From the NCBI GenBank assembly GCA_963706025.1, contig CAVPLM010000003.1:384001-448000 (forward strand): a DNA stretch of 64,000 nucleotides, given 5' to 3'. Under the pieces are notes generated by a model. It was not told the origin of the DNA and ran no database searches. It worked only from the letters and a program-made list of their open reading frames with translations. The translations under genes and the position numbers were made by a program. Positions 29,562 through 62,340 of the stretch are shown here, piece by piece. This DNA is from an uncultured Actinomycetes bacterium. GTDB lineage: Bacteria; Actinomycetota; Thermoleophilia; RBG-16-64-13. Positions within the stretch are counted from its first letter, which is position 1, and every line of letters starts with the position of its first letter.

Positions 29562-29654
29562 GGATGCCGAGGGGGAGGTGAGCCGGCACGAAGTAGGCAG
29601 TGGTTGGGAGACCACGAGTCCGTCGAGTGGTATCAGAGAACGGGAGGGATCGTA

Positions 29655-30803: not shown

Positions 30804-30840
30804 CTCTGGTCAACACGACGGCCACTACAGCAAGGTGATC

Positions 30841-34588: not shown

Positions 34589-34645
34589 GTCGCGGCGACC
34601 AGCTGGCGACCATCCCTCCTGGCCGAATGAAAGGAGTTGGTGCAG

Positions 34646-38362: not shown

Positions 38363-39154
38363 ATGATCAGACAGGCGCGCAACAAAGGTATTCCGCTGTA
38401 CTACCAGGTGATGCGGAGCCTGAAGGAGGACATCCTTTCGGGACGCTGCGCCCCCGAGAAGCAGCTTCCTTCAGAGGCTGAGCTCACGAAGATCTTCAAC
38501 GTGAGCCGTGTGGTGGTGCGGCAGGCGCTCGAGATGCTGGAAGATGAGGGTCTGATCGTGCGAGTCCGGGGCAAGGGGACCTTCGTATCCAAAGACGCGG
38601 CGGCGGATGAAGCCCCCGTGCTCTCCGGCTATATCGAGGATTTCCTGCGCGTAGGCTGGGCCCTTGAGGTGAAGGTACTGGAGTTCGGGCTCGTCAAGGC
38701 CAGTCCCGATCTGGCTTCGGTCTTCAAAGTGGCGGAGGCCAGCGATCTCTTCCACGTGAAACGGCTCCGCCTGGTCGAGAGCCGGCCGTTCTCGGTCGTC
38801 GAGAACTACCTACCCTACGAGTTGGGAAGGCATATTCCCATGGCGCTTCTGGAAGACGAGCCGCTCATGACCCTGATCGAGAAGCATGTGGGGGTCTCCA
38901 TCGAATGGGCGTCCCAGGTCTTTCAGGCGGTCTCGGCCGACGCCGATCTGGCCGCTCTTCTGGATGTCGACGTCATGGCTCCCATCTTGAAGATGACGCT
39001 CACCGCATACACCGCGGAGAGCGAAGCGGTGAATTTCGCCAACGTCTACTACCGGTCCGATCGTTACAACCATCACGGCTACCTGCGCCGGCGGCGAACA
39101 AGCGACCATCTGACGTGGACCGCGGTCGAACGCATCCACGCGATGGGGGCTTGA
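38363..39154 (+). CDS. GntR-family regulator (HutC/UTRA subfamily)
   Basis: PLYYQV, LPSEAEL, VSRVVVRQAL, RGKGTFV; UTRA-type C-terminal domain ending YYRSDRY. Confidence 0.93.
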   Translation: MIRQARNKGIPLYYQVMRSLKEDILSGRCAPEKQLPSEAELTKIFNVSRVVVRQALEMLEDEGLIVRVRGKGTFVSKDAAADEAPVLSGYIEDFLRVGWALEVKVLEFGLVKASPDLASVFKVAEASDLFHVKRLRLVESRPFSVVENYLPYELGRHIPMALLEDEPLMTLIEKHVGVSIEWASQVFQAVSADADLAALLDVDVMAPILKMTLTAYTAESEAVNFANVYYRSDRYNHHGYLRRRRTSDHLTWTAVERIHAMGA

Positions 39155-39182: not shown

Positions 39183-40220
39183 ATGCGGGCTTTACGTCTC
39201 ATGGCGGCGGGGGATCTCAGGGTGGACGACGTACCCGATCCCCAGATCAAGAACGGCAAGAACGCCGTCCTCGCGGTCACCAAGACCGCCATATGCGGAG
39301 CCGATCTCCTGCCCTATTGGGGCTATGTGCCGGGTTTCGAATGGGGCACCACAATGGGGCACGAGTTCGTCGGCGTGGTTAAGGAGGTGGGCGCGGCGGT
39401 CGCTCAGGTCAAGCCCGGTGACCGGGTCGTGTGCTCCTCGATGACCTCGTGCGGTGTGTGCTGGGCCTGCCGCCGTGGGATGCAGCCACAGTGCGAGAAC
39501 CGGGCTCTTTTCGGCTTTTCCGGGGCGTACCCGCGGTTGGACGGAGGCCAGGCCGAGCAGGTGCTGGTCCCCAACGCCGACCGCGACCTGTGGCTACTCC
39601 CGCCTGAAGTGTCCGATGATGCCGGGGTGTTCGTGGCCGACATTCTCTCCACCGCCTTTCGTGGGGTCGAGCAGGCCGACGTCAAGATGGGCGATACGGT
39701 AGCGGTGGTCGGATGCGGTCCTGTCGGTCTCATGGCCATCCTGAGCGCACGGCTCATCGCGGGAATGGTCATCGCCGTGGACACGGTCCCAGCGCGGCTC
39801 GAACAGGCTCAGGCCATGGGGGCGGTGACCATCGATGCCTCCACTCAGGATGCCGTGGCCGCTGTGATGGACCTCACCGGCGGACGCGGTGCCAAGGCGG
39901 TCATCGAGTGCGCAGGCGGAGTCCCTGCACTCACGTCCGCCATGCAGATGGTGCGGGTGCGGGGCACCGTGAGCGTTATCGGCGCTCACTTCGAGCCCGA
40001 TTTCCCCTTGGACGCGGGAGGCATGTTCGCCAAGGAAACCACCTTGAGGTTCTCGATCGGAGCTCCAACCGACGATCGCGAGACAGTGCTCGACCTGCTC
40101 CGGCTGGGCAGGATCGATCCCACGCCCACGATCTCCCATCACATGAGTCTGGAAGATGCGCCCGAGGCCTACAAGCTTTTCGAGGCTCGGGAGGCCACCA
40201 AAGTGGTGTTGACGCCCTAG
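39183..40220 (+). CDS. Zn-dependent medium-chain alcohol dehydrogenase
   Basis: CGAD, GHEFVG, structural Zn site CGVCWAC...C, DILST, GCGPVG. Confidence 0.93.
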   Translation: MRALRLMAAGDLRVDDVPDPQIKNGKNAVLAVTKTAICGADLLPYWGYVPGFEWGTTMGHEFVGVVKEVGAAVAQVKPGDRVVCSSMTSCGVCWACRRGMQPQCENRALFGFSGAYPRLDGGQAEQVLVPNADRDLWLLPPEVSDDAGVFVADILSTAFRGVEQADVKMGDTVAVVGCGPVGLMAILSARLIAGMVIAVDTVPARLEQAQAMGAVTIDASTQDAVAAVMDLTGGRGAKAVIECAGGVPALTSAMQMVRVRGTVSVIGAHFEPDFPLDAGGMFAKETTLRFSIGAPTDDRETVLDLLRLGRIDPTPTISHHMSLEDAPEAYKLFEAREATKVVLTP

Positions 40221-40273
40221 CCGGTCTCGGGGGCGTCCTCAAAGCGAGGCGAGACTCGAATGATTACGTATAA

Positions 40274-40293
40274 ATGTATTAGAATGATGACAA
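40274..40293 (+). promoter_or_regulatory. Candidate operator, copy 2, overlapping a -10 box (TAGAAT) upstream of the Fe-ADH operon
   Basis: ATGTATTAGAATGATGACAA in an AT-rich island, 14/20 identical to the site at 28680-28699. Confidence 0.5.
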
Positions 40294-40312
40294 GTTAGGA
40301 GGGCAGTACATC

Positions 40313-41461
40313 ATGGCGAACGCGCAGTTCTTTTTCTTGGGTACGAGGCTGGTTCACGGTCTTGGTGCGGTCGCGGGCCTCGCGGGGCACGTGAAGGCCC
40401 TGGGCGGTACCAAGGTCTTCTTGTGCACGGACAAGGGTCTCAGCAGCGCGGGGGTGACCGAGAAGGTCGCCGGCGTCTTGGCGGCGGATGAGATCCCGTT
40501 CGTGACTTTCGACGACGTGCCGGAGGATCCCGGGGTCGCGGTGGTGGATGCGGGGGTTAAGCTTTTCCAAGAGGAGAAATGTGACCTGGTCGTGGCTCTC
40601 GGCGGCGGTAGCCCGATGTGCGCGGGCAAAGGCATCGCCCTGGTGGCCATGAACGGAGGCAAGCTGACCGACTACGAAGGATTCAACAAGGCAGCCAAGG
40701 CTCCGTATCCCGTGATAGCGATCCCCACGACCGCCGGGTCGGGCACCGAGGTGTCGAAGGTCAACATCCTCACCGATGAGGCCCGCAACTTCAAGATGTC
40801 CTTCCTGGACGAACGGACCTTCCCGAAGATCGCTCTTCTGGACGGGGAATTGATGGCGTCGCTTCCGGCAAGACCGGCGATCGTGGCCGGCATGGACGCA
40901 CTGGCCCACGCTCTGGATGCCCTGTGGTCCGTCAACTCCACCCAGATATCGGACAGCCTGGGGGTCGCGTCCGCGGCCACCATCTTCGAGACTCTGCCCC
41001 GAGCGGCGTTCACCGGCGACCTGGCAGCCAAGCAGAAGATGCTGGAGGCCAGCTCGATTGCCAACATCGCGCTGGGGACGGCACTCCCCGGCTTGGCTCA
41101 CGTACTGTCGCAGCCCCTGGGCAGGTATCACATGGCTCACGGCCTGGCCACGGGCATCATGCTTCCCTACACCATGGAGTTCAACCTTCCCGTGGCCGCG
41201 GCCAAGATGGCGCCCATCGCCCGGCTGCTCGGCGAGAGCGGGAGCGACCGGGAGCTGGCTGAGGTGTTGCTCGAGCGGCTGTGGGGACTCATGGGCGAGT
41301 TGGACTTCCCCACCTTCCTCGACCCCGAAGTGGTGAAGGAAGAAGACCTGCCCGTCTTGGTAGAACAGTGCACCAAGGTCGTCAACTACCGCCTGAACGT
41401 GAGGTTTGCTTCTCCCGCCGACCTCACCGGCCTGTATCTGTGTGCACTCGGAAAGGAGTGA
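40313..41461 (+). CDS. Iron-containing alcohol dehydrogenase
   Basis: ALGGGS, IPTTAGSGTEVS, GMDALAHA and GLAH...AHG metal ligands. Confidence 0.93.
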   Translation: MANAQFFFLGTRLVHGLGAVAGLAGHVKALGGTKVFLCTDKGLSSAGVTEKVAGVLAADEIPFVTFDDVPEDPGVAVVDAGVKLFQEEKCDLVVALGGGSPMCAGKGIALVAMNGGKLTDYEGFNKAAKAPYPVIAIPTTAGSGTEVSKVNILTDEARNFKMSFLDERTFPKIALLDGELMASLPARPAIVAGMDALAHALDALWSVNSTQISDSLGVASAATIFETLPRAAFTGDLAAKQKMLEASSIANIALGTALPGLAHVLSQPLGRYHMAHGLATGIMLPYTMEFNLPVAAAKMAPIARLLGESGSDRELAEVLLERLWGLMGELDFPTFLDPEVVKEEDLPVLVEQCTKVVNYRLNVRFASPADLTGLYLCALGKE

Positions 41462-41463
41462 CA

Positions 41464-43345
41464 ATGGAGGCGACACCTCGTGGCTCCTGGTGGGGCAGGA
41501 GTCCTTTTCGTCGATGTTGGTACCGGCGAGACGCGGGAGGAAGCCCTGGACTGGGACGCGGCCCGCGATTTCATCGGCGGGCGCGGCCTCGGAGCCTACT
41601 ACCTCTTCAAGCATCTGGTGCCGGGCACCGACCCCTTGAGCCCGGACAACCCGCTGATCTTCGCGGGCAGCCCCATGTCGGGCACCTCCTGCCCCGGCTC
41701 GGCCCGGGGCGCGGTGGTGACCAAGTCGCCCCAGAGCGGGATCTACACGTTCGCGATCACCGGGGGCGAGCTGGGACCGGCCCTCAAGCGGTCGGGCTAC
41801 GACGTGATCATCCTCACCGGCAAAGCCGAGAAGCCGGTCTACGTGGAAGTGGGTCCGGACGGCGCAGAACTACGTGACGCTTCTCATCTCTGGGGCTTGG
41901 ACACACAGTCGACCCAGGAACTCATCAAGAAAGAGCGACGGGGTGAAGACCTGGCCATCACCTGCATAGGGCAGGGAGGCGAGCGGCTGGTGCCTTACGC
42001 CTGCCTGATCAACGAGCGTCGCGCTCTTGGCCGGGGCGGTCCGGGTGCTGTCATGGGCTCGAAGAACGTGAAGGCCCTTGTGATCAAGAAAGACGGACCC
42101 GCGGCGCCGCTCGCCGATCCGGCGGCGTTTCGCGAGGCTGCGCGAAACGCCACCTTCCAGTGCCGCGACAACCCCTTTACCTCGGGGCCACTGAAGACGT
42201 TCGGGACGGTGAGCACTGTGGCAGTCACCGTCAACGGGGCCATCATGCCGGCGGACAACTGGCAGCGCATGACCACTGTCGAGGAGGGCAAGAACCTTTT
42301 CGGCAACGTGCTCCGCGAGAAGTTCTTGGTCAAAGACGTGGCCAGCGGCGAACCCTGCAACATCAAGTGCTCGAAGATCACGGTGGTGAAGGACGGACCC
42401 TTTGCCGGCGCCTCGACGGAAGGACCGGAGTACGAGACCATCTATGCTTTCGGCACCGGCTGCGGCATCTTCGACTTCGCGCCCATCATCGAAGCCGACA
42501 GGATGTGTGACCTCTATGGCATCGACACCATGTCGGTGGGAGTGACCATCATGTTCGCCATGGAATGCTACGAGAAGGGTCTCATCACCAAGGAAGACAC
42601 CGGCGGCATCGACCTGCGTTTCGGCAATGCCGAGGCCATGGTGAAGCTGGTGCACGACGCTGCTTTCCGGCAAGGCTTCGGCGAGAAGATCGCCAGGGGC
42701 TGCCGCGCCCTGGCTGCCGAGATCGGGCAAGGCAGCGAAGCCTTCGCCATGCACACCAAGGGCGTGGAGGTCGGCGGGTACGACCCGCGGGGCGCCAAGG
42801 GCATGGCCCTGGTCTACGGTTGCGGCCCCCGGGGCGGCTGCCACCACGCCGGTGGCTACACCGTCCAGTTGGAGTTCACCAATCCCGATATCGACCGCTA
42901 TGCCGACTCGGGCAAAGTCCCCATCGTCCTCATGACCCGTAACCGCAGGGCCGCGGCAGCGGACTCGGGCGGTACCTGCGCGTTCCTCACGGTGGGCATG
43001 GACAACGACGTCCTCGCCGGCATGCTCTCGGCAGCCACCGGCAATCCGATGACGGTGCAGGACATGATGCTGGCGGGCGAGCGGATCAGCATGCTGGAGC
43101 GGGTGCTCAACGTGCGCGAAGGTCTGCGGGCTGCAGACGACGTTATTCCCCGGCGGCTGATCGAGGAGAGCGTCCCCGACGGACCGACCGCGGGACACAT
43201 GGTCGATTGGGATCTCATGCATAGGGAGTTCTATCAAGCCAGCGAACTGGACCCGATAACGTCGCTCCCCACCAAGGATAAGCTTGCGAAGATGAACCTG
43301 ACCTGGGTGCTCGACGATCCTGTGGTCGCGGCCCTGGCCGGCTAA
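41464..43345 (+). CDS. Aldehyde:ferredoxin oxidoreductase family protein 2 (start 41464 with one extra base at ~41500, or GTG 41480)
   Basis: FIGGRGLG, TKSPQSG, GRGGPGAVMGSKNVKA, EGPEYET, CDLYGIDTMS, YDPRG, RGGCH. The AAGGAG RBS precedes ATG 41464. Confidence 0.92.
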
Positions 43346-43354: not shown

Positions 43355-44950
43355 GTGGCCTACTACCGCGACTTCAGGGAGTACGTCGCGAAGCTGGATG
43401 AGATGGGCCTGTTGCGGCGGGTCTCCACCCCCATCAACAAGGATACGGAGCTGATGCCGCTGGTCAGGCTCCAGTTCCGGGGACTACCGCCGGAACAGCG
43501 TACCGCCTGGGTGTTCGACAACATCCACGACGTGCTGGGCAAGAAGTACAACGGGTCTCTGGCCGTCTGCGTGCTCGGCGGAAATCGCGCGATCTATGCG
43601 GCAGCCCTGGGCTGCGAACCGGAAGAGATCAGCAAGAAGTGGGCCCAGGCCCACCAGAGCTGCATCGAGCCGAAGCTGGTCAAGGACGGGCCCTGCAAGG
43701 AAGAGATCCACGTGGGCGACAACCTGCTCGAGCACGACGGCATCCTGGAGTTCCCCCATCCCATATCGACGCCCGGCTTCGATCCCGCGCCCTTTTTTAC
43801 GTCGCCCTACTGGGTGACGAAGGACCCCGAGACCGGCCAGCGCAACATCGGCACGTACCGGGCCATGGTCAAAGGACCGGCCCGCACCGGGGTGATGGCC
43901 CACCAGTCGCAGCACATAGGTATCCACTTCCAGAAGATCCAGCGGCAGGGTGAGCATCGCCTGGATGCCGCGGTGGTCATCGGCTGCGCACCGGCCGTGG
44001 GTTTGTGCAGCGTGGCCAAGGTGCCGTACTCGGTGGACGAATACACGCTGGCGGGGGGTATCGCGGGCGAGCCCATCGAGCTGGTGAAGTGCGAGACTGT
44101 TGACCTGGAGGTGCCGGCGACGGCCGAGATCGTCATCGAAGGCTGGGTGGACACCACCTTCCGGGAGAAGGAAGCCCCCTTCGGCGAGTACACCGGGTAC
44201 ATGGGCGGCCGGGTGATCAACCCGGTCTTCAACGTGACCGCCATCACCCACCGTAAGAACCCCATCTATCAGGCGTTCCTCAGCCAGTTCCCTCCCTCAG
44301 AGAGCAGCCTCATCCGCAAGCTGGCCTATGACGCCGCCTATCTCAAATTCCTGCAGCACGACTGCAACATCCCAGGCGTGCTCGATGTGCAGTTGCATGA
44401 GTCCACCGGCAGTTACGGGCTGATGGTGATCCAACTCAATAAGACCCATCCGGCCCAGCCTTGGCAGGCTTTGAACGCGGCCGTGGCCTTCGATCCCACT
44501 ATCGGCAAGGTGATCGTGGCCGTGGACGACGACATCGATCCCAACGACGCCGACGCCGTGAACTGGGCCATGGCCTTCCGCATGCAGCCTCACCTCGACA
44601 CTCGGATCACCACCGGCAAGGCGTCCATCCTCGATCCCTCGTCGGCGCCGCCGGAGGCTTCGGTGGACGTGCAGCGCTTCCCGCCGCCGGTGGGGACGTC
44701 GTCTCTGCTCATCGATGCCACGAGGAAGTGGGGCTACCCGCCCACTTCGCTCCCGGCCAAGGAGTTCATGGAGGCGGCGCTCGAACGGTGGCAGGCGGAG
44801 GGCCTGCCGGCGCTCAGTCTCAAGAAACCATGGTTCGGCTACGAGCTGGGCCACTGGACCGACGAAGAACGCGAGGACGCCGCCAAAGCCATCCGCGGCG
44901 AGTACCTCGACACCGGCGAGAAGCTTCAACAACATCGCGAGGATCTGTGA
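43355..44950 (+). CDS. UbiD-family (prFMN-dependent) decarboxylase, catabolic paralogue
   Basis: RNIGTYR, VPATAEIVIEG, EAPFGEYTGY, FPPSES, VDDDIDP, LIDATRK. Confidence 0.92.
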   Translation: MAYYRDFREYVAKLDEMGLLRRVSTPINKDTELMPLVRLQFRGLPPEQRTAWVFDNIHDVLGKKYNGSLAVCVLGGNRAIYAAALGCEPEEISKKWAQAHQSCIEPKLVKDGPCKEEIHVGDNLLEHDGILEFPHPISTPGFDPAPFFTSPYWVTKDPETGQRNIGTYRAMVKGPARTGVMAHQSQHIGIHFQKIQRQGEHRLDAAVVIGCAPAVGLCSVAKVPYSVDEYTLAGGIAGEPIELVKCETVDLEVPATAEIVIEGWVDTTFREKEAPFGEYTGYMGGRVINPVFNVTAITHRKNPIYQAFLSQFPPSESSLIRKLAYDAAYLKFLQHDCNIPGVLDVQLHESTGSYGLMVIQLNKTHPAQPWQALNAAVAFDPTIGKVIVAVDDDIDPNDADAVNWAMAFRMQPHLDTRITTGKASILDPSSAPPEASVDVQRFPPPVGTSSLLIDATRKWGYPPTSLPAKEFMEAALERWQAEGLPALSLKKPWFGYELGHWTDEEREDAAKAIRGEYLDTGEKLQQHREDL

Positions 44951-44981: not shown

Positions 44982-46208
44982 ATGGCCGATCTATCCGTCG
45001 ATTTTGCGGGTCTTAAGCTCAAGAACCCGTTCATCATCGCGTCGTCCGAGCTGACCAACAAGATCGACAAGATCAAGATCGCCGAGGAGCATGGAGCCGC
45101 GGCCGTCAGCACCAAGCTGACCTTCTTGCAGATCCCTCTGTACGCCCGTCCCTATCACATCATCGAAAAGGAGGGCGCCTTCTACTCGCCTTCCGGTGAG
45201 CGCATGCGGGTAGATCAGACCCAGCGACTCGTCCAGCAGTGCAAGGAGCAGACCGACCTCAAGGTCATCGCCAACATGATGGGTCCGGGTGAGGATCTGG
45301 AGGGCTGGGCGAAGCTGGCCCGCGCTCTGGAAGAAGCCGGCGCCGACATGCTGGAGCTCAACATGTCCTGCCCGAACCTGGGTCTGATGGCAAAGCAGAT
45401 GGGTGTGGACGAGGAGCCGGAGCTGGGGGCGACACTCGGCAAGGACCCGGTGCTGGCCGGGAAAGTGACCAAGGCCGTCACCGACGCCGTGAAGATCCCT
45501 GTCATGCCCAAGATGACCCCTGAGGCCAACACCATGATGGTGTCGAAGTCGGTCCAGAAGAACGGCGCCGCGGCCGTCTCGGCCATCAACTGCCCACAGT
45601 CGCTGCCCCCGCTGGACATCGACCACGGTGGCCGGCCGTTCTATCCCTCCACCGGCAACCAGTCCTACGCCGGCCTCTGCGGTCCTTGGATCCGGCCGCT
45701 GGCCTATCGGCACGTGGCTCAGATGCGCACCGTCTGCCCCGACCTGCCCATCGCCGGCGGCGGCGGGCTGATGAACTGGCGCCATTCGGTAGAGATGATC
45801 ATGTACGGCGCCACCGTGCTCACTTACTGTTCGCTGCTCTACCTCAAGGGCTACAAGGCCTTCACCAAGATAGAGCCGGGCATGCACAAGTTCATGGACG
45901 AGCACGGCTACAAGACCCTGGCCGACATGCGGGGGATCGCGCTCGAGTACATCGTCACCCCCAAAGAGGTGGACTACATACCGATGCTCCCGGAGTTCGA
46001 CCTGGAGAAGTGCAACGGTTGCGGGCTGTGCGCCGCGCCGGGGCATTGTGAGTGCATCGAGATCGTGGACAAGAAGGCCGTGCTGGTGCAACCGAAGGAA
46101 TGCTATTCCTGCGCCGTCTGCTACTTCCTCTGCCCGAAAGACGCGATCACCATGAAGAACGCGCCGATCGAAGAGACCCGGGCAGGTGTGGCGCTGATGG
46201 AGCAGTGA
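44982..46208 (+). CDS. PreA-like (dihydropyrimidine/dihydroorotate dehydrogenase family) FMN reductase with C-terminal 2x[4Fe-4S] domain
   Basis: LSVDFAGLKLKNPFIIAS, ELNMSCPN (catalytic Cys), KMTP, GPWIRPLA; CNGCGLC and CYSCAVCYFLCP. Confidence 0.85.
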   Translation: MADLSVDFAGLKLKNPFIIASSELTNKIDKIKIAEEHGAAAVSTKLTFLQIPLYARPYHIIEKEGAFYSPSGERMRVDQTQRLVQQCKEQTDLKVIANMMGPGEDLEGWAKLARALEEAGADMLELNMSCPNLGLMAKQMGVDEEPELGATLGKDPVLAGKVTKAVTDAVKIPVMPKMTPEANTMMVSKSVQKNGAAAVSAINCPQSLPPLDIDHGGRPFYPSTGNQSYAGLCGPWIRPLAYRHVAQMRTVCPDLPIAGGGGLMNWRHSVEMIMYGATVLTYCSLLYLKGYKAFTKIEPGMHKFMDEHGYKTLADMRGIALEYIVTPKEVDYIPMLPEFDLEKCNGCGLCAAPGHCECIEIVDKKAVLVQPKECYSCAVCYFLCPKDAITMKNAPIEETRAGVALMEQ

Positions 46209-46233: not shown

Positions 46234-47127
46234 ATGAAGGCTTTTGAATACCTGCGTCCGGCGTCGATCGAGGAGGCGTGCGCGCTCCTGGCCGCCGGTG
46301 ATGGCTCGGTGAAAGTCCTGGCCGGCGGGACCGACCTGCTTGTGCAGATGAAGCAGGGGAAGCTGCAGCCGGAAGCGCTGATCAGCCTTAGGGACGTCCC
46401 CGGGCTTTCGTTCATCCGGCTGGATGGTGACGGGGGCCTTTCACTGGGGGCGGCCACTCCTCTGGGGTCAGTAGAGAGGTCCCCCGAGGTGATCAAGGGC
46501 TTCCCGGCCATTGCGGAGGCGGCCTCATGGATCGGGTCCGTGCAGGTGCGCAGCCGGGCCACCGTGGGAGGCAACCTGTGCAACGCCGCTCCCTCCGCCG
46601 ACATGGCCCCCATCTTGATCGCATTCGGAGCTGAGGCGGTCATTGCTGACGGAGGCGCCGAGCGCACGGTGCCGCTCGAAGACTTCTTCACCGGACCGGG
46701 CCGGACGGCGCTCGGGCCGGGTGAACTGCTCAAGGCCATCAAAGTACCACCGGCGCCCGCCAGGAGTTTTGGAAAATACGTCAAGGCCTACCGGTCCGCG
46801 ATGGACCTCGCCACGGTGGGGGTGGGGGCGCTGGTGGTCTTCGCGCCTGGTTCCGCGCGCTCCCCGGGTGTCGTGGAGGACGTTCGCTTGGTCCTCGGGG
46901 CCGTGGCGCCCACGCCCATCCGTGCGCGCGAAGCCGAGCGGATGCTGACCGGTCACACGCTGGATGAGGAGGTGATCGCGCAGGCGAGCCGCAAAGCCGC
47001 GGAGGAAGCCCGGCCGATCACCGACGTACGCGCCTCGGCCGAGTACCGGACCACCCTGGTGGAGGTCCTGTCTCGCAGGGCTCTTCTTGCGGCGTACTCC
47101 TGGGCCGGAAAAGGAGGACGAGAGTGA
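46234..47127 (+). CDS. Xanthine-dehydrogenase-family FAD subunit (CoxM type)
   Basis: FEYLRP, LAGGTDL, QVRSRATVGGNLCNAAPSAD, GAVAPTP, DVRASAEYR. Confidence 0.95.
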   Translation: MKAFEYLRPASIEEACALLAAGDGSVKVLAGGTDLLVQMKQGKLQPEALISLRDVPGLSFIRLDGDGGLSLGAATPLGSVERSPEVIKGFPAIAEAASWIGSVQVRSRATVGGNLCNAAPSADMAPILIAFGAEAVIADGGAERTVPLEDFFTGPGRTALGPGELLKAIKVPPAPARSFGKYVKAYRSAMDLATVGVGALVVFAPGSARSPGVVEDVRLVLGAVAPTPIRAREAERMLTGHTLDEEVIAQASRKAAEEARPITDVRASAEYRTTLVEVLSRRALLAAYSWAGKGGRE

Positions 47128-47606
47128 AGAGAGAGCTGCACATAACGGTCAACGGCGATGAGTACCATCTGTTCGTCGATGTGCGCCGCACCCTCCTCGA
47201 TGTGATCCGGGAAGACATCGGTCTGACCGGCACCAAGAACAGCTGCGGCGCCGGTGAATGCGGCGCCTGCACGGTATTGCTCGACAACGAGCCGGTCAAC
47301 TCCTGCCTGGTGCTCGCTCACGAGGCCGATGGGCAGGACGTGGTGACCATCGAGGGCCTTGCCCAGGGAGGCGTGCTTCATCCGGTCCAGGAGGCCTTTG
47401 TGGAGCAGGGCGCCATCCAGTGCGGCTTCTGCACGCCGGGCATGGTCATGTCCACGAAGGCCCTGCTCGACCGGAAGCCCAATCCGACCCGGGACGAGAT
47501 CCTCCACGGGCTGAAAGGGAACCTCTGCCGGTGCACAGGCTACGTGAAGATCATCGACGCCGTCGAAGCGGCGAGCTGCCTGCTCGGGGAAGGGGAGTCC
47601 GCATGA
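47124..47606 (+). CDS. Xanthine-dehydrogenase-family 2x[2Fe-2S] subunit (CoxS type)
   Basis: CGAGECGACTV, QCGFCTPG, GNLCRCTGY. Confidence 0.97.
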   Translation: MKRELHITVNGDEYHLFVDVRRTLLDVIREDIGLTGTKNSCGAGECGACTVLLDNEPVNSCLVLAHEADGQDVVTIEGLAQGGVLHPVQEAFVEQGAIQCGFCTPGMVMSTKALLDRKPNPTRDEILHGLKGNLCRCTGYVKIIDAVEAASCLLGEGESA

Positions 47607-49885
47607 ACACCTGCGTGATCGGGAAAGGACTTCCGCGCATCGACGCGGTCCCCAAGGTGACGGGTGAGGCGCAGTACACCGTCGATCTCAAGATGCCGGG
47701 GCTACTCATAGGCAAGATCCTGCGAAGCCCACATCCTCATGCCCTGATCAAGTCCATCGACACCTCGGCCGCGAAGGATCTCAAGGGGGTGCGGGCGGTC
47801 ATCACGGCCGCGGACGTCCCCGAGAACCTCTTCAGCTTCTATCAATGGCTGGCCGACAAGAACATCCTGTGTCGCAGCAGGGTCCGGTACGTGGGTGACG
47901 AGGTCGCCGCGGTGGCGGCTGTTGACGAGGATACGGCCGAAGAGGCGCTCTCGCTCATCAAGGTCGAGTACGAACCTCTTCCCGCGGTCTTCACCCTGGA
48001 GGAGGCAATGCAGCCCGGGGCGCCCCTGGTGCACGAGGACAAAGAGAGCAACGCGACTTGGAGCGTTCAACGCCTGTTCGGCGACCCCGACACGGCCTTC
48101 GCCGAGTGCGACTACGTGATCGAAGGCACGTATGTCACCCACCAGGTGGCGCACACCTGCTTCGAGGTATCCAACTGCATCGCCAAGTGGGACGCCAAAG
48201 ACCGTCTGACCATCTGGACGAACACCCAGGCGCCTCACACGCAGAGACAAGAGGTGGCTCGGATCCTGGGCATCCCCAAACGCAACGTGCGCGTCATCAG
48301 CTCTTACATGGGCGGGGGCTTCGGCTCCAAGCTGGTCATGGACATGAAGCTGCCCATCGCCGCCGTTTTGTCGAAGATGTGCGGGCGCCCGGTGCGCATC
48401 GTGAACACCAGGAGCGAGGAGTTCACTACCGCGAAGACCCGCTATCCCTACACCATGTATCTGAAGACCGGGGCCACCAAAGACGGCCGGATCGTGGCCC
48501 GGGAGCTCAAGGTTCTTGCGGACGCTGGTGCATATCACGACAAAGGGCCCGCCACGATCAACTTCGCCAGCATGATGTTCGGCACCCTCTACAACGTGGC
48601 CAACATGCGCTTCGACGGTCAACTGGTATACACCAACAAGGAGATGGGCACTGCCTTTCGCGGCTTCGGGAATCCGCAGGTTTCCTTCGCCACCGAGACA
48701 CAACTCGACGAACTGGCCGAGAAGATGGGCATGGACCCGCTGGAGCTCCGGCTCAAGAACTCCAACCAGGCCGGTGTGGAGACCGCCTGCGGCGCCGAGG
48801 TCTGCGGGTGCGCGATGACCGAATGCATAGTGGCCGCGGCCGAAGGCATCGAGTGGGACAAGAAGAGGGGCAAGAAGGCGAACGGCAGGCTGCGCGGCGT
48901 GGGCATGGCCAACATGGTCCATACCGGTGGCGGCGGACGCTTCTACGGATACAACTCGGCGGAAGCCTTCGTGAAGCTCTCGGATGAGGGGACGGTGACC
49001 CTCATCACTTCCGCCCTCGACATGGGCCAGGGAGCGCATACGGCCATGGCGATGATCGTGGCCGAAGAGCTGGGAGTCAATCTGGGCGACATCAACGTGC
49101 TGTCCCACGACACCGACCTCACGCCCTACGACCTGGGCTCCTGGGGGAGCCGGGCCACGTTCATGAACGGCAACGCCGTTCTTGCGGCAGCCCGGGACGC
49201 GAGGAACGCGGTGGGAGAGGCCGCGGCCGAGATGTTGGAGGCCGACGCGAAGGACATTATCGTGGAGGGAGGCAAGGTCTGGGTCAGAGGCTCGGAAGAG
49301 AAGCACGACCTGGCCGAGATCGTCGAGCACGCGGTGAACGCCCATGGCTCTCCGCTCTCCGGGACGGGCAAGTTCGTCGACTCTCTGCCCGCGGGGTATA
49401 CGATCCCCACCGCCTTCATCAAGAACATCCCCTGCTTCTCGTTCGGCACCCAGGCGGCCGAAGTGGAGATAGACCCGGAAACCGGTCAGGTGAAAGTCCT
49501 CAAGGTGGTGGCCGCCCACGAGACGGGTACCACCATCAACCAGACCATGGTCGAGGGGCAGATCGAGGGCAGCGTGGCTCAAGGTGTGGGCTACGCTCTG
49601 GTGGAGCAGTTGATCCGCGATGAGAGCGGTAAGATCCTCAACGACAGCTTCCTCGATTACAAGATCGCCAACATCGGAGACATACCGGAAATCGTAGCCA
49701 TCGGGGTGGAGAGTCTGGGCACGAACGGCCCCTACGGCGCGAAGGGCATCGGAGAGCCGGGTCTGGTCCCGACTGCCCCGGCGATAGCCAACGCGATCTT
49801 CGACGCGATCGGGGTCCGGTTCTACGAATTGCCCATCACGCCTGACAAGGTACTGAGAGCACTGGAAGCGAAGAGATCGAAGTAG
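47603..49885 (+). CDS. Xanthine-dehydrogenase-family molybdopterin large subunit
   Basis: KVTGEAQY, GGGFGSK, AFRGFGNPQ, DMGQG, EGQIEG, GAKGIGEP. Lacks the CO-dehydrogenase AYxCSFR loop. Confidence 0.95.
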   Translation: MNTCVIGKGLPRIDAVPKVTGEAQYTVDLKMPGLLIGKILRSPHPHALIKSIDTSAAKDLKGVRAVITAADVPENLFSFYQWLADKNILCRSRVRYVGDEVAAVAAVDEDTAEEALSLIKVEYEPLPAVFTLEEAMQPGAPLVHEDKESNATWSVQRLFGDPDTAFAECDYVIEGTYVTHQVAHTCFEVSNCIAKWDAKDRLTIWTNTQAPHTQRQEVARILGIPKRNVRVISSYMGGGFGSKLVMDMKLPIAAVLSKMCGRPVRIVNTRSEEFTTAKTRYPYTMYLKTGATKDGRIVARELKVLADAGAYHDKGPATINFASMMFGTLYNVANMRFDGQLVYTNKEMGTAFRGFGNPQVSFATETQLDELAEKMGMDPLELRLKNSNQAGVETACGAEVCGCAMTECIVAAAEGIEWDKKRGKKANGRLRGVGMANMVHTGGGGRFYGYNSAEAFVKLSDEGTVTLITSALDMGQGAHTAMAMIVAEELGVNLGDINVLSHDTDLTPYDLGSWGSRATFMNGNAVLAAARDARNAVGEAAAEMLEADAKDIIVEGGKVWVRGSEEKHDLAEIVEHAVNAHGSPLSGTGKFVDSLPAGYTIPTAFIKNIPCFSFGTQAAEVEIDPETGQVKVLKVVAAHETGTTINQTMVEGQIEGSVAQGVGYALVEQLIRDESGKILNDSFLDYKIANIGDIPEIVAIGVESLGTNGPYGAKGIGEPGLVPTAPAIANAIFDAIGVRFYELPITPDKVLRALEAKRSK

Positions 49886-49906
49886 TCACGTGCAGTAGTC
49901 ACGTGC
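49881..49906 (+). repeat. 13-bp tandem duplication at the junction of the Mo subunit and yqeC
   Basis: AGTAGTCACGTGC twice; each copy contains TAG and GTG. Confidence 0.9.
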
Positions 49907-51411
49907 AGGCCACCGCGCACGAAACTCTCTCCGGCGCCCTTGGTCTGGGGCGCCGGGAGTTGGTGGCGCTGGTTGGCGGGGGCGGCAAGACCGGCGCGCT
50001 GCGCCTTCTTGCCCGCGAGTTGACCGCGCCTGGGCGCCGCGTGGTGGCAACGACGACGACGGCCATGTTCCTCCGAGAGTTGAGCGAGGCCGGTCCGGTG
50101 GTCATGGGCGCGACCCTGCCCGACTTGCTGGCGGGCGTCGAAGAGGCTCTCGCGCAGGGAGCGGCGCAGGGAGCGGCGGTGGGGGCCGCGCGCATGCCTG
50201 TCGACCAGGACAAGGTGATGGGCCTTCCTGCCGACTGGGTGGATCGGCTCTGGGCGAAGGGCGCGGAAGGGCGCGACCCCTTGGAGATGGTCTGCGGAGC
50301 GGCTGCTCCAACGGTCGACTTTCCCGCCCCACTTGACTACCTGCTCGTCGAGGCCGACGGGAGCCGGGGAAGGCCGCTCAAGGCCTTCGGGGCTCACGAG
50401 CCCCAGGTTCCTGACGCGACGACCACCGTCGTGCAGGTCGCCGGATTGGATGCCCTCGGTGCCCCGCTGACCGAAGAGTACGTGCATCGCGCCGGTTTGC
50501 TTGCCTCCGCGTTGCGGGTGCCGGTCGGCTCGAAGATAACGGCCCCTGTCTTCGCGGGCTGTCTGCGCGAGCAGGTGCAGGTGATCAGGCGCCGCTGGCC
50601 GGATGTCCGGGTCGTCACCCTGCTGAACAAGGCCGAAAGGCCGGAGGATGAAGCCGCAGGACTGGAGTTGGCCGGGGAGTTGCTGGGGGCGCCTGTCGGC
50701 AATGGCGGGGGCGATGCCCGAGGCTACAGGCCGGACTCCGTCGTAGTGGGCAGTCTTCAGGAGAGGCGCTTCGTGCGCGCCCGAAAGAGCGTGTCGGTCG
50801 CCGCGATCGTGCTGGCTGCAGGCCTCGGGACCCGGATGGGAGGCCAGAAGGTACTGTTTCCCCTGGGGGAACGTTCATTGGTGCAATGGGTAGTGGATGC
50901 AGCCCTGGGCTCGGGGGCTGCCGAGACGATCTTGGTGGTGGGGCATGAGGCGGGATCGGTGGCCGACGCGGTGAAAGACCGGCCGGTGAACGTGGTGGTC
51001 AACCCTGATCACGCCGAGGGCATGAGTACTTCTCTTCAGGCCGGGGTGCGGGCCGTCCGGCCGGACTGCGACGCGGCCGTCTTCATGCTTGGGGATCAGC
51101 CGTTCGTCACGTCGGCGCTCGTGGATGGGCTGATCGAGCGGTTCGCCGAGAACGAAGCCTGGGTGGTCAGACCCGTTCTTGGGAACCGGCCTATCCACCC
51201 GGTGCTCATGAGCGCGGCGCTCTTCCCGGAGATCTTGAGTCAGCGCGGCGACATCGGCGGCCGCGAGATCGCCCGGCGTCATCCGGAGCGGGTCAGCCTG
51301 GTGCCTGTGGACGACAGTCGGTTAGACTTGGACGTCGATACGGGTGAGGACTACGAGGAGGCCCTTCGGATCCGGGGCTGCTCGGCGGAGCGAGTGGCAG
51401 GAGACCAATGA
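49903..51411 (+). CDS. yqeC: YqeC (Se-dependent Mo-hydroxylase accessory protein) fused to a MocA-like cytidylyltransferase
   Basis: VGGGGKT, TTTT and LVEADGSRGRPLKA...HEP (YqeC); LAAGLGTRMGGQK, GMSTSL, LGDQP, GDIGGR and DVDT (MocA). Confidence 0.88.
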   Translation: MQATAHETLSGALGLGRRELVALVGGGGKTGALRLLARELTAPGRRVVATTTTAMFLRELSEAGPVVMGATLPDLLAGVEEALAQGAAQGAAVGAARMPVDQDKVMGLPADWVDRLWAKGAEGRDPLEMVCGAAAPTVDFPAPLDYLLVEADGSRGRPLKAFGAHEPQVPDATTTVVQVAGLDALGAPLTEEYVHRAGLLASALRVPVGSKITAPVFAGCLREQVQVIRRRWPDVRVVTLLNKAERPEDEAAGLELAGELLGAPVGNGGGDARGYRPDSVVVGSLQERRFVRARKSVSVAAIVLAAGLGTRMGGQKVLFPLGERSLVQWVVDAALGSGAAETILVVGHEAGSVADAVKDRPVNVVVNPDHAEGMSTSLQAGVRAVRPDCDAAVFMLGDQPFVTSALVDGLIERFAENEAWVVRPVLGNRPIHPVLMSAALFPEILSQRGDIGGREIARRHPERVSLVPVDDSRLDLDVDTGEDYEEALRIRGCSAERVAGDQ

Positions 51412-52244
51412 GGAGACAGGAGCTATACGCGCAGATGGCCGACCTCACCGGACGAGGGGTGCCGTTCGTCCTTGCCACCATCATCGGGACTTCAGGCTCC
51501 AGCCCGCGCGGCGTGGGGACGAAGATGCTCGTCATGGGAGACGGCAAGACCGTCGAGACGATCGGCGGAGGAGCACTGGAGAAGCAGGTCATAGCCGATG
51601 CTCTGACCTGTCTTGTCTCCGGGGCGTCCCGCATCGAGCGTTACGAACTGCGCGCGCAGGGAGATCACGCTCTGGGTACTTTGTGCGGAGGGGAGGCTAC
51701 GGTCTTCCTGGAGGCGCACGTGCCGGATCGCACTCTTCTCATCGTGGGAGCCGGCCACGTGGGCCGTAGTCTCTGCCGGTGCGCCAAGCTGCTCGACTAT
51801 CAGGTGGTGGTGCTGGACCCCCGGGAAGACATGGTGACTCCGGAACGCTATCCCGAGGCCGACCGGTTGATCTGCGGCGATCCGGCGCAGACCGCGGACC
51901 TGTTCCCCATCTCGTCGACGACCCACGTGGTCATCGTTACCCACGGCCATCAGCTCGACAAAGACGCCCTGCTTTCGGTGATCGGTTCTCCCGCCGCCTA
52001 CATCGGGATGATGGGGAGCGCCACCAAAGTGCGGGCCGTTCTCGCTCAGCTCCGGGAGGCCGGGGTCGATCCAGGACTGCTCGACCGGGTTCATGCTCCC
52101 ATAGGTCTGGATATCGGGGCTGAGACCCCCGCCGAGCTGGCGCTTTGCATCATGGCCGAGATAGTGGCCGATGGCTACGGCAGGCTGAGCGGACTGAGAA
52201 ACGCAGCCGCTGAGACTGGAGTCCGGGAGGGGTGTGGGGAGTGA
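51408..52244 (+). CDS. xdhC: XdhC/CoxI-family molybdenum-cofactor insertion chaperone
   Basis: GSSPRGVGTKM, TIGGGALE, CGG, GAGHVG, YIGMMGS, PIGLDIGAETPAELA. Confidence 0.92.
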   Translation: MRRQELYAQMADLTGRGVPFVLATIIGTSGSSPRGVGTKMLVMGDGKTVETIGGGALEKQVIADALTCLVSGASRIERYELRAQGDHALGTLCGGEATVFLEAHVPDRTLLIVGAGHVGRSLCRCAKLLDYQVVVLDPREDMVTPERYPEADRLICGDPAQTADLFPISSTTHVVIVTHGHQLDKDALLSVIGSPAAYIGMMGSATKVRAVLAQLREAGVDPGLLDRVHAPIGLDIGAETPAELALCIMAEIVADGYGRLSGLRNAAAETGVREGCGE

Positions 52245-53095
52245 TGACGGTCTCCGCGCCCGTGACCCCCGTCAGTCCCAGCCGGCGGCCGGTGGCTCTG
52301 GTCAAAGGGGCCGGGGACCTGGCGAGCGGGATAGCCGTTAGGCTTCATCGGGCCGGGTTCGCGGTGGTGATGACCGAGATCGACCGTCCGACCGCGGTGC
52401 GCCGCACTGTGGCTTTCGCGGAAGCCGTCTATGAAGGGTCCGTGGAGGTGGAAGGCATCGAGGGAGTGAAGGCGCCGGACGCGGAAACGGTCCGGCGGCT
52501 CCTCGCGGCCGGGAAGATTCCCGTGATAGTCGACCCTGAGGCCCTCATCAGACGCGAAATCGCGCCACTCCTCGTGGTCGACGCCATCCTGGCCAAGCGC
52601 AACCTGGGCACCCGGATCACGGATGCCCCGGCCGTGGTAGCGCTGGGGCCGGGATTCGTCGCCGGAGTCGACGCGCACGCCGTCGTCGAGACGAAACGCG
52701 GCCATGCTCTGGGCAGGGTGATCTGGCGAGGGGAGGCCTACCCCGACACCGGCGTTCCCGGAGAGGTGGGCGGCTTTGGAGAGGAGCGCGTGCTTCGCGC
52801 GCCCGGACCGGGAGTGTTCGAGGGCACGAAGGAGATCGGCGCCATGGTCGCGGCGGGCGAGATCGTGGGCCAGGTCGGAGACGCTCCGGTCCGGGCTCGT
52901 CTGGACGGAGTGCTGCGCGGCCTGCTTCGCTCCGGATTGGAGGTGACCGGCGGGTCCAAGCTGGGCGATGTCGATCCCCGGGCCACCCGGGAAAACTGCT
53001 TTCTGGTCTCGGATAAGGCTTTGGCGATCGCGGGCGGAGTGCTTGAAGCCGCCTGTGGTCTTTTGGGCGGCGTGCGTTTCGTGGTCGATCGCTGA
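52244..53095 (+). CDS. yqeB: YqeB-family selenium-dependent Mo-cofactor protein
   Basis: VKGAGDLASG, AVRRTVAFAEA, DAILAKRNLGT, ETKRGHALG, KLGDVDPR, SDKALAIAGGVLEA. Confidence 0.92.
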   Translation: MTVSAPVTPVSPSRRPVALVKGAGDLASGIAVRLHRAGFAVVMTEIDRPTAVRRTVAFAEAVYEGSVEVEGIEGVKAPDAETVRRLLAAGKIPVIVDPEALIRREIAPLLVVDAILAKRNLGTRITDAPAVVALGPGFVAGVDAHAVVETKRGHALGRVIWRGEAYPDTGVPGEVGGFGEERVLRAPGPGVFEGTKEIGAMVAAGEIVGQVGDAPVRARLDGVLRGLLRSGLEVTGGSKLGDVDPRATRENCFLVSDKALAIAGGVLEAACGLLGGVRFVVDR

Positions 53096-53113: not shown

Positions 53114-54118
53114 GTGAAGTCCTACACTACTCTCATCAAGGGCGCCCGACTGGTCGTCGAGACCTGCTTCGCCGTGAAGGCCGGCGATGCGGTGCTCATC
53201 ATCTGTGACGAGGATCACCGGCGTGAAGCGGAGGCTATAGCCGGGGTGGCGGTGTCGCTGGGCGCCTATCCGGTGGTCGCCGACATCTCCCATCATGTCA
53301 GCTCGGCGCTCGCGTCGATGAAGGTTCCCATGGAGCCGGCCAAGAACCTGGCAGCCGCGATGGAGGCTTCGGACGTCATCATCATCACCACCAACCTGGA
53401 GTGGGCCAACCGCTTCGCCCACGTCAATCCTGTGGCCGCCAGCGTGAGCAAAGGGGCCAAGATCGGCTCGGTGGAAGAGGGCATGGCCGACTGGGATCTG
53501 ACCAAGGAGGAGATCGACCAGACCGTCGCCCGGGCAGAGAAGCTCATGGCCGCGCTTGAAGGGGTGGAGTGGGTGCGGGTGACCAACCCGGCCGGTACGG
53601 ACGTCAAGGTCTGCATCAAAGACCGTCCGCCCCTGAAGGTGGTGCCCATCAAGGGTGCGGGAGAGATGATGGGCCCGGTGCCCCTGTGGGGCGAAGTGGC
53701 CTATGCCGCGGTGGAAGACAAGACCGAGGGCGTGATAGTCGTCGATGGCATCATGCTGGGAGTGGGGGTCTTCGGCTCACTGCAGAACACCATCACGTGG
53801 GTCATCAAGGACGGCCGGGCGGTGGAGATCACCGGCGGAGCCGAAGCCGAGCGGCTGCGCAACGTGGTAGCCGGTTCGGACGAGAACGCCAATGTCGTGG
53901 CCGAGTTCGCCATGGGGACCAGCACCAAATCGCCGCGAGGCTCGGCGTCGGAGAAAGGGCTGCTCGGCACGGTGCATTTCGCCCTGGGTGACAACTCCCA
54001 CTGCTATCCCGGGGGCTGCAGCCACAGCAGTCTGCACCTCGACGGCAACCTGCTGAACGTGACGGTCGAGACCGGCGATGGCCGCGTGCTCATCAAGGAC
54101 GGGGAGTTGGTGATCTGA
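53114..54118 (+). CDS. M29/aminopeptidase-T-like metalloprotein (fold shared with NicX)
   Basis: GTD, GEV...EGVIVVDG, AEFAMG, GTVHFALGDN...GG...LHLDG...IKDG. Confidence 0.78.
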   Translation: MKSYTTLIKGARLVVETCFAVKAGDAVLIICDEDHRREAEAIAGVAVSLGAYPVVADISHHVSSALASMKVPMEPAKNLAAAMEASDVIIITTNLEWANRFAHVNPVAASVSKGAKIGSVEEGMADWDLTKEEIDQTVARAEKLMAALEGVEWVRVTNPAGTDVKVCIKDRPPLKVVPIKGAGEMMGPVPLWGEVAYAAVEDKTEGVIVVDGIMLGVGVFGSLQNTITWVIKDGRAVEITGGAEAERLRNVVAGSDENANVVAEFAMGTSTKSPRGSASEKGLLGTVHFALGDNSHCYPGGCSHSSLHLDGNLLNVTVETGDGRVLIKDGELVI

Positions 54119-56151: not shown

Positions 56152-56275
56152 CCGCGCCGTCCTTTCCGATCCGAAGCCGGGTGCTGTGTCTGTTCGGGGA
56201 GATCCTGGTCCGCGAACGTGCCGCGTGCTTGAATGTAGGCTGCAAGAGGGGGTTTTGCAAGACGGGAAAGAGGCT

Positions 56276-60850: not shown

Positions 60851-60863
60851 AAAGGCGGTGAAG

Positions 60864-62329: not shown

Positions 62330-62340
62330 AAGGAGGGACG

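Follow-up and report, generated by a model that had tools for sequence, protein, structure and literature searches.

A PreA-like reductase gene and its product

The gene considered here encodes P0001, a PreA-like reductase, and lies in a stretch of 64,000 nucleotides (the window) from an uncultured Actinomycetes bacterium of the Thermoleophilia (GenBank assembly GCA_963706025.1, contig CAVPLM010000003.1, positions 384,001 to 448,000 of the forward strand). An earlier reading of this DNA (the original prediction) had proposed the product to be an orphan flavin and Fe-S enzyme that reduces a pyridone ring. The open reading frame (ORF) was found to span exactly positions 44982..46208 of the plus strand, on which all features described below lie unless stated otherwise, and to encode a protein of 408 residues; a ribosome-binding site, GAAGGAGG, is positioned 6-7 nucleotides upstream of its ATG. 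The genes around it are tightly packed: (i) the ATG of P0001 lies 31 nucleotides past the stop codon of a UbiD-family decarboxylase gene; (ii) the ATG of an Xdh-family FAD-subunit gene lies 25 nucleotides past the P0001 stop codon; and (iii) the start of the Xdh-family molybdenum (Mo)-binding subunit gene overlaps the stop codon of the gene preceding it (ATGA). The UbiD, P0001, and Xdh genes were therefore read as one operon.

P0001 was identified as a PreA-like reductase with a flavin mononucleotide (FMN) and two [4Fe-4S] clusters by Pfam, NCBIfam, PDB and structural model comparisons. It matched the Pfam DHO_dh profile (PF01180) over residues 4-305 at 82.2 bits against a cut-off of 27, which places it in the DHO_dh superfamily. 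Its best sequence match in the PDB was pig dihydropyrimidine dehydrogenase (DPD), aligned over DPD residues 531-823 and, more weakly, 912-1006. The AlphaFold model, built on 33 homologues, had a pLDDT of 91.2 and a pTM of 0.90, and its top fold match was DPD domains IV and V (1gth, TMq 0.84), with class 1B dihydroorotate dehydrogenase (DHODB) ranked behind. P0001 has the DPD/PreA architecture, in which an FMN barrel carrying a Cys loop is followed by a C-terminal domain for two [4Fe-4S] clusters.

The residues of the active site were examined by alignment to pig DPD and across the P0001 family, with the family represented by 33 rows. K45, N127, C130, K177, and N203 of P0001 were found to align on K574, N668, C671, K709, and N736 of pig DPD, respectively, and C204 on T737. 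The active-site loop N127-M-S-C130-P-N132 with its catalytic Cys (45360..45377) was invariant (33/33 rows) and is followed, in the sequence alignment, by an 8-residue insertion that is specific to the family relative to pig DPD. In the A-I-N203-C204 motif (residues 201-204; 45582..45593), a Cys replaces the Thr of the I-N-T motif that DPD and PreA have in common; this Thr (T737) belongs to the uracil-binding motif of DPD. C204 was present in 32 of the 33 family rows, the exception being a frameshifted assembly, while I-N-T was present in all 19 PreA rows and V-N-T in the PyrD of the same genome. Arg74 (45201..45203), which may serve as a carboxylate binder, was likewise uniform (R in 33/33 family rows, E in 19/19 PreA rows). 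The C-terminal ferredoxin-like domain (45999..46166) aligned weakly to DPD 912-1006, and its eight Cys residues (344, 347, 350, and 356, with 374, 377, 380, and 384) were all invariant in the family. Thus, the FMN barrel, the catalytic Cys of NMSCPN, the ferredoxin tail, and AINC in the place of INT, as put forward in the original prediction, were each upheld by these comparisons.

A separate clade without a PreT or PyrK partner

P0001 scored below the cut-offs of the PreA and PyrD models, with 232.3 bits against 335 for NCBIfam PreA (NF006183) and 157.6 bits against 269 for PyrD; all PyrD models examined were below cut-off. In a quick IQ-TREE search of 73 rows, from which one frameshifted row had been removed, the family's 32 rows formed one branch (SH-aLRT 99) and the PreA rows that are accompanied by PreT formed another (support 100); the tree neighbours nearest to the family were four Bathyarchaeota proteins with a different gene context. 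The P0001 family is, in other words, a separate clade that stands apart from PreA+PreT. Comparison of the active site with PreA and PyrD, an approach suggested with the original prediction and carried out here by alignment, revealed a core common to all three groups (K45, N127, S129, C130, P131, K177, and N203) and seven family-specific differences from PreA: R74 (Glu in PreA), N98 (Ser), N132 (Gln), C204 (Thr), Q206 (Lys), C233 (Ser), and G260 (Ile). The first six of these residues are predicted to line a substrate pocket that is changed from that of PreA. Public records label members of the family as PreA, DHOD (dihydroorotate dehydrogenase), or tRNA-dihydrouridine synthase, and these labels are probably wrong.

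We also investigated whether P0001 has a partner through which NAD(P)H could supply electrons. No PreT-type gene (Fer4_20/Pyr_redox_2) and no PyrK gene was detected in the window by Pfam scan. When the survey was extended to the genome (3.66 Mb in 30 contigs, 92% complete), DHO_dh matches were found in three places, corresponding to a genuine PyrD, P0001, and one weak hit; the PyrD (293 bits, cut-off 269) has a PyrK-like gene directly upstream on contig C5. Matches to Fer4_20 were found in six places, all on other contigs or at least 72 kb from P0001, and the five Fer4_20 proteins compared with NCBIfam were GltD-like or NuoF-fused, with none named PreT. The loci of 80 relatives, one genome per species and with flanks that reach 10 kb only, served as a control set; 72 of these gave a clean ORF, and 8 were dropped because the ORF was outside 370-480 residues or the match was shorter than 330 residues. 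A PreT-like gene was present within 10 kb in none of the 32 family loci (at least 57% identical to P0001) and was directly adjacent in 19 of the 40 more distant loci (29-41% identical), with all 19 at 30-32% identity; in each of the four Bacillota loci inspected, Pfam likewise placed PreT immediately upstream. Fusion to such a module was examined among proteins of 715-2040 residues, where the 19 hits at E <= 1e-20 were at most 32% identical to P0001 and included no fused family member; the fused forms found were PreT-PreA/DPD only. The claim that neither PreT nor PyrK is found nearby held for the window and the genome, and the absence of PreT held for the 32 family loci as well; the genome search for preT that accompanied it returned no PreT by name among the five Fer4_20 proteins submitted.

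One long ORF had the appearance of a fusion that would link the reductase to its neighbour: P0105 (703 residues), which combines DHO_dh with FAD_binding_5 and could have been a Rosetta-stone fusion to the Xdh FAD subunit. It was rejected as a frameshifted read-through. P0044, P0091, and P0118 were likewise frameshifted translations, with long Arg/Pro-rich out-of-frame stretches from error-prone assemblies.

The orphan state had been treated in the original prediction as without precedent, and this did not stand, as two reductases of this kind have already been published. PydAc of Clostridium chromiireducens, according to passages of PMC7332683, has no FAD/NAD(P)H module, reduces uracil with ferredoxin or methyl viologen, occurs in anaerobes, keeps both ferredoxin domains (four clusters), and is encoded in a Pyd cluster with PydB and PydC. 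UacX of Clostridium difficile is presented in passages of PMC12507026 as a PydA homologue that replaces YgfK in the reductive uric acid pathway, where its assigned task is to dearomatise the purine yanthine, next to an XDH homologue; SsnA, HyuA, UacY, YgeY, and YgeX are its neighbours. A DPD-family reductase without an NAD(P)H module is thus a known kind, and P0001, with 408 residues and no FAD or NAD(P)H domain, has this feature in common with PydAc. It differs from PydAc, as far as the two can be compared by description, in that its barrel begins at residue 1-4 and only the C-terminal cluster pair (Cys 344-384) is present; nor does Pfam detect a PydB-type Amidohydro_1 gene in the window. Like UacX, as described in the passages cited, P0001 is a DHO_dh-family reductase that lacks an FAD domain and has an XDH-family Mo enzyme and amidohydrolases as partners, with which it would dearomatise and open an N-heterocycle under anaerobic conditions. 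It departs from UacX in its proposed substrate and in its other partners, which are UbiD, aldehyde:ferredoxin oxidoreductases (AORs), an aminotransferase, a NicX-fold protein, and a cupin; the SsnA, HyuA, and YgeX families were not seen in the window by Pfam or NCBIfam. Compared with PreA/PydA2, represented by pig DPD domains IV-V, P0001 has the same architecture, fold, and length class, the same FMN lysines, the same N-x-S-C-P Cys loop, and the Asn of the I-N-T motif; the lack of PreT, the sub-cut-off PreA score, the separate clade, the pocket changes, the 8-residue insertion, and a different neighbourhood set it apart. What is new here is the separate clade with its changed pocket, the restriction to the C-terminal cluster pair, the fixed pairing with UbiD, and a neighbourhood suggestive of pyridines of the B6 type.

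Several further genes were noted, some with a possible bearing on electron supply. Downstream of the cluster, positions 58776-63488 encode an HdrA-like flavoprotein, an MvhD-like protein, and a sulfhydrogenase-beta-like Fe-S protein, which could form a ferredoxin-linked electron module; the HdrA-like gene begins 12.5 kb downstream of P0001, and within their 10-kb flanks the related loci showed no such module, with an HdrA-like gene in 0 of 36 family loci. In the PreT-less part of the wider PreA-like group, a clade gene of a deltaproteobacterial metagenome-assembled genome (MAG) stands beside a ferredoxin and AOR pair (L057:6908-11200), and one of a Rhodobacteraceae genome stands beside a DUF3470 ferredoxin-type gene (L055:9986-11641); these two loci hint that partnership with ferredoxin is common among PreT-less members. 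The genome of P0001 itself encodes a second, remote DHO_dh-like protein of 439 residues with a 4Fe-4S domain and without PreT (G000:C19:74056-75375, equivalent to L090:8057-9376), located beside a class I/II aminotransferase, a PLP-dependent decarboxylase, and Mo enzymes similar to pyrogallol hydroxytransferase. It also contains an ORF in which a FAD domain similar to Xdh and to the beta subunit of 4-hydroxybenzoyl-CoA reductase is joined to a GltD-like NAD(P)-binding part (G000:C3:501196-502446, equivalent to L006:1018-2268, with a copy on C21); this ORF was split over two frames by tblastn, and a frameshift or an assembly duplication is possible.

A conserved neighbourhood and its clues to the substrate

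Synteny was assessed by searching the window proteins against the 80 loci with tblastn, a comparison that comprised 36 family loci and 43 non-family loci. The family was found to span at least seven named lineages, with carriers in the Thermoleophilia and other Actinomycetota, Aerophobetes, Chloroflexota, Spirochaetota, SAR324, Deltaproteobacteria/Desulfobacterales, Peptococcaceae, Syntrophomonadaceae, and other Bacillota. A UbiD gene directly adjoins the PreA-like gene (gap of at most 490 nucleotides) in 31 of the 36 family loci. Actinobacterial loci have it upstream of the PreA-like gene, the rest downstream; of the five loci without an adjacent UbiD, at least three lie at contig ends. When the analysis was restricted to the 21 loci whose flanks extend for 8 kb or more to each side (full-flank loci), the cupin and at least one AOR were present in all 21, the NicX-fold (M29-like) protein in 20, UbiD in 19, the polyferredoxin in 18, the aminotransferase and the Xdh Mo subunit in 15 each, and the M20 protein in 10. 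In the 43 loci of more distant homologues, UbiD, the NicX-fold protein, the cupin, and the aminotransferase were each found 0 times. Pfam analysis of five loci of different lineages confirmed the neighbour assignments. Across all 36 family loci the Xdh Mo subunit was present in 19. For two genomes (L010 and L011) a Mo hydroxylase orthologue, 80-82% identical, was found on another contig. In a Thermoleophilia subgroup (L023:11119-15218, also L024 and L025), a third AOR-family gene (676 residues) and a gene for a GlpC/HdrD-like CCG Fe-S protein (679 residues) hold the place of the Xdh genes, between the PreA-like and NicX-fold genes.

In the window, an Amidohydro_2 gene (PF04909; 28827-29561), which has a Pfam match and no NCBIfam match, lies directly upstream of the gene for the B6-type binding protein and may be a further part of the cluster. 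A BMP-family ABC transporter follows (29604..34588), whose binding protein had a single NCBIfam match, to the 'putative B6 ABC transporter substrate-binding protein' (356.1 bits, cut-off 400). Next is a class V aminotransferase (34637..35821), for which the best NCBIfam match was pyridoxamine-pyruvate transaminase (PPAT; 432.9 bits, cut-off 600). The same model was also the best for the aminotransferases of a deltaproteobacterial (396 bits), a spirochaete (366 bits), and a second Thermoleophilia locus (454 bits), with the next model at 210-272 bits. The deltaproteobacterial locus in addition encodes, between its UbiD and M29-like genes, a 3-hydroxyacyl-CoA-dehydrogenase-family protein whose best model was 5-formyl-3-hydroxy-2-methylpyridine-4-carboxylate (FHMPC) 5-dehydrogenase (328 bits, cut-off 500, next model 268).

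The aminotransferase gene is followed by a polyferredoxin of 136 residues (35818..36228; Pfam, NCBIfam) immediately upstream of the first AOR gene (AOR1). The longest ORF of AOR1 is 36075..38030; with the AFOR_N domain beginning at residue 58, its true start is probably near 36230. A GntR/UTRA regulator (38363..39154) and a pair of alcohol dehydrogenases, one Zn dependent and one Fe dependent (39183..41461), were assigned by Pfam and NCBIfam, and a second AOR (AOR2; 41480..43345) by Pfam. The UbiD-family decarboxylase (43355..44950; Pfam, NCBIfam) is the direct upstream neighbour of P0001; its nearest solved relative is 6h6x/6h6v, the furandicarboxylate decarboxylase HmfF, an enzyme of a heteroaromatic dicarboxylate.

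Downstream of P0001 are the genes of an Xdh-family enzyme, comprising the FAD subunit (46234..47127) and the 2x[2Fe-2S] subunit (47124..47606), both assigned by Pfam and NCBIfam, and the Mo-binding subunit (47603..49885), a probable ring hydroxylase by its NCBIfam and PDB matches. Among the latter were the alpha subunit of 4-hydroxybenzoyl-CoA reductase (477 bits) and two chains of Eubacterium barkeri nicotinate dehydrogenase (300 and 214 bits). The following genes (49903..53095), for a YqeC-MocA fusion, XdhC, and YqeB, are maturation genes of selenium-dependent Mo hydroxylases; YqeB (353.7 bits, cut-off 220) and YqeC (128.8 bits, cut-off 73) both scored above cut-off, and by these matches would mark the hydroxylase as selenium dependent. 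This selenium-linked set is one of two Mo-cofactor gene sets in the window, the other (14265-18140) being general in nature (MobA/MobB, MoaA, MoaC, MOSC, and MoCF_biosynth).

The cluster continues with a NicX-fold (M29-like) metalloprotein (53114..54118), a candidate ring-opening hydrolase recognized by profile and Foldseek comparisons; a small cupin (54119..54550; Pfam), which is always paired with the NicX-fold gene; and, on the minus strand, an M20 amidohydrolase similar to ArgE/DapE (54910..56457; Pfam, NCBIfam). When compared directly with the PDB, the NicX-fold sequence gave nothing significant. A profile of 22 orthologues matched NicX (7cn3) at E 3e-4, the Atlas clusters of the protein carry PF26233 NicX, and its model (pLDDT 87.0) had NicX 7cn3 as the top Foldseek match (E 6e-23, TMq 0.80), ahead of M29 aminopeptidases. 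NicX is described in passages of PMC7910607 as a ring-cleaving dioxygenase that acts on 2,5-dihydroxypyridine, with His265, Ser302, His318, and Asp320 as iron ligands. In the alignment, the family of the window protein keeps the ligands His308 and Asp310 and has an invariant Glu264 at the position of NicX His265 and Ala290 at that of Ser302. Such a site looks more like the metal site of M29 hydrolases than the iron site of NicX. The NicX-fold protein is probably not a dioxygenase, as it is found in lineages regarded as strict anaerobes.

Candidate reaction and rival explanations

To our knowledge, bacterial breakdown of vitamin B6 is known only as an O2-dependent pathway, and a literature search, judged on titles and the openings of abstracts, found no anaerobic route. 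In the aerobic pathway the ring is opened, after side-chain oxidation and one decarboxylation, by MHPC oxygenase, an O2-dependent flavin monooxygenase. We propose that P0001 uses electrons from ferredoxin to reduce a C=C bond of a B6-derived hydroxypyridine or pyridone, which is thereby dearomatised, and that it so replaces the oxygenase step, a reading to which we assign a probability of roughly 0.45. The broader possibility that P0001 is the first DPD-family enzyme to dearomatise a pyridine, and an O2-free stand-in for MHPC oxygenase in an undescribed anaerobic B6 pathway of sediment bacteria from many phyla, is offered more tentatively and is open to greater doubt.

We infer the substrate, the direction of the reaction, the electron donor, and the order of the steps as follows. 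Pyridoxamine would be transaminated to pyridoxal, and both side chains would then be oxidised to carboxylates by the alcohol dehydrogenases and the two tungsten AORs, with reduction of ferredoxin. UbiD would take off one carboxyl group, and the selenium-type Mo hydroxylase would add a water-derived hydroxyl group next to the ring nitrogen to generate a 5-hydroxy-2-pyridone, a ring of the 2,5-dihydroxypyridine type. By homology to DPD, electrons would pass one at a time from a low-potential donor through the two [4Fe-4S] clusters to the FMN of P0001. Reduced ferredoxin is a reasonable donor because AORs and a polyferredoxin are encoded in the cluster (21 and 18 of the 21 full-flank loci, respectively), and the likeliest form of it would be ferredoxin reduced by the two AORs of the operon, whose electrons would in this way be recycled. 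PydAc provides a precedent for ferredoxin as the electron source of a family member. The beta carbon of an N-C=C-C(=O) unit would receive a hydride from FMN N5 while Cys130, on a mobile loop, protonates the alpha carbon, such that a ring C=C conjugated to the carbonyl is reduced and the dearomatisation takes the place of the O2-dependent MHPC oxygenase reaction. The NicX-fold protein, repurposed as a hydrolase, would open the resulting lactam hydrolytically. The substrate of P0001 would most likely be a B6-derived hydroxypyridine carboxylate or the 2-pyridone formed from it by the Mo hydroxylase; a 3-hydroxypyridine carboxylate could also be reduced directly.

This scheme has two points of reference. 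P0001 would occupy the same pathway position as MHPC oxygenase, but, unlike that enzyme, which depends on O2 and opens the ring itself, the proposed route would proceed by hydroxylation with water, then reduction, then hydrolysis. In Eubacterium barkeri, a 2-pyridone formed by a selenium-dependent Mo hydroxylase is reduced in a ferredoxin-dependent manner by 6-hydroxynicotinate reductase, and the ring is subsequently opened by hydrolysis. The outline of this nicotinate fermentation pathway agrees with passages in PMC9304392. P0001 would be the functional analogue of 6-hydroxynicotinate reductase.

Several observations weigh against the proposed role. The Mo hydroxylase is absent from the locus in 6 of the 21 full-flank loci, and three genomes (L023, L024, and L027) have only homologues that are 40-44% identical; because the hydroxylase is not universal, a hydroxylated pyridone is not secured as the substrate. 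All three B6-model matches are below cut-off and denote relatedness rather than identity of function, such that the true substrate may be a compound that resembles B6. Family members differ at the position matched to DPD Asn609, where the alignment is poor and uncertain. A NicX homologue could signify O2-dependent ring cleavage, with the reductase then acting on the ring-opened product, and so close a pairing with UbiD may indicate some other coupling than that proposed here. The claim of the original prediction, that P0001 dearomatises a hydroxylated pyridine with AOR-reduced ferredoxin, was thus retained in part. A PreT-less DPD-type enzyme with a different pocket, neighbours suggestive of hydroxypyridine or B6 chemistry, and ferredoxin as a reasonable source of electrons were all borne out; the hydroxylated form of the substrate (with the hydroxylase in 15 of the 21 full-flank loci), the choice of an intact ring over a ring-opened enamide, and the identity of the donor are putative.

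The readings that compete with this role differ mostly in the compound on which P0001 would act. The cluster might degrade some other heteroaromatic with hydroxymethyl or aminomethyl substituents, and P0001 reduce its ring; candidates include the thiamine pyrimidine HMP, an aminomethylpyrimidine, a furan (HMF/FDCA), a pyrrole, or another pyridine. This is unlikely, if still credible. In its favour, every B6-model match is below its cut-off, the nearest solved relative of UbiD is HmfF, the enzyme family of P0001 normally acts on pyrimidines, and BMP-family binding proteins, by their Pfam name, commonly bind nucleosides. Three independent neighbours nonetheless point to B6, and the NicX fold to a dihydroxypyridine; two AORs together with alcohol dehydrogenases would match B6, with its two side chains, better than compounds that have a single one; Cys stands in for the uracil-type Thr, and a furan would require no aminotransferase or amidohydrolases. 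Rather improbable is a reaction one step later, in which P0001 would reduce the C=C of a ring-opened enamide of the acetamidomethylene-succinate or maleamate type, released by the NicX-fold protein or the cupin. Its appeal lies in the strong fold match to NicX, which, according to passages of PMC7910607, cleaves its ring as a dioxygenase; in an acyclic N-CH=C-COO unit that would resemble the reaction centre of uracil and orotate; and in the incomplete distribution of the Mo hydroxylase. The carriers, however, include known strict anaerobes (Desulfobacterales, Syntrophomonadaceae, and Peptococcaceae), the clusters encode AORs of the tungsten type, and the reductase pairs with UbiD, an enzyme of aromatic acids, rather than with the NicX-fold gene. 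In addition, the Glu and Ala that replace His265 and Ser302 give that protein a site which would better suit an M29-like hydrolase.

The remaining explanations were considered far less probable. That P0001 is a plain ferredoxin-dependent uracil/thymine reductase similar to PydAc, or a dihydroorotate dehydrogenase, and is in the cluster by chance, would accord with the public annotation of its relatives as PreA or DHOD and with the conserved catalytic core. We find it very improbable in view of the scores under the PreA and PyrD cut-offs, the separate clade, the pocket substitutions, the lack of an Amidohydro_1 dihydropyrimidinase (PydB) in the window by Pfam, Amidohydro_1 being the family of SsnA and HyuA as well, and the genome's own PyrD/PyrK; the synteny with UbiD, the NicX-fold protein, and the cupin is moreover fixed across phyla and absent in the 43 non-family loci. 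Just as little credence is given to an oxidative direction, in which P0001, in the manner of DHOD, would remove hydrogen from a dihydro ring or saturated lactam, the electrons leaving by way of its Fe-S clusters for ferredoxin or another acceptor. The chemistry of the family is reversible, as DHOD and DPD illustrate, but ferredoxin is a poor acceptor for such oxidations, and the pathway would need an electron sink, with two AOR steps, the alcohol dehydrogenases, and the hydroxylase already providing a surplus. Least probable of all is that P0001 serves the adjacent UbiD, for example as a redox partner in the anaerobic maturation of prenylated flavin. The position of UbiD immediately next to the gene, before or after it, in 31 of 36 loci would fit such a role, for which we know of no precedent; a second UbiD gene in the window (21208-22716) lacks a partner of this kind, and P0001 has retained an intact Cys loop of the substrate type, while its pocket carries family-specific residues.

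If P0001 does act as a B6-ring reductase, this would (i) show how the ring of a cofactor can be recycled without oxygen; (ii) add pyridines to the pyrimidines and purines on which the DPD/DHOD family acts; and (iii) make an O2-free B6 pathway directly testable, with a defined candidate available for each step. The occurrence of the cluster was also examined in environmental sequence data. Contigs of 150-420 nucleotides from two metatranscriptome runs of one study (X18 and X20) and from two runs of uncertain type (X17 and X19) were found to match genes of the cluster, including one contig inside the P0001 gene (45299-45465) with 0 differences; those from the metatranscriptome runs matched several cluster genes at few differences or none. 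These contigs represent presence in RNA libraries only, with carry-over of DNA possible, and are not proof of expression. Most of the matching pieces were 90-95% alike and hence from relatives, and a peak in depth at 47253-47916 corresponded to the conserved 2Fe-2S region of many organisms. The stretch itself was found in DNA runs labelled as freshwater, sediment, and wetland metagenomes from several studies, and the cluster occurs in MAGs of many anaerobic lineages as well as in metagenomes of freshwater and wetland sediments.

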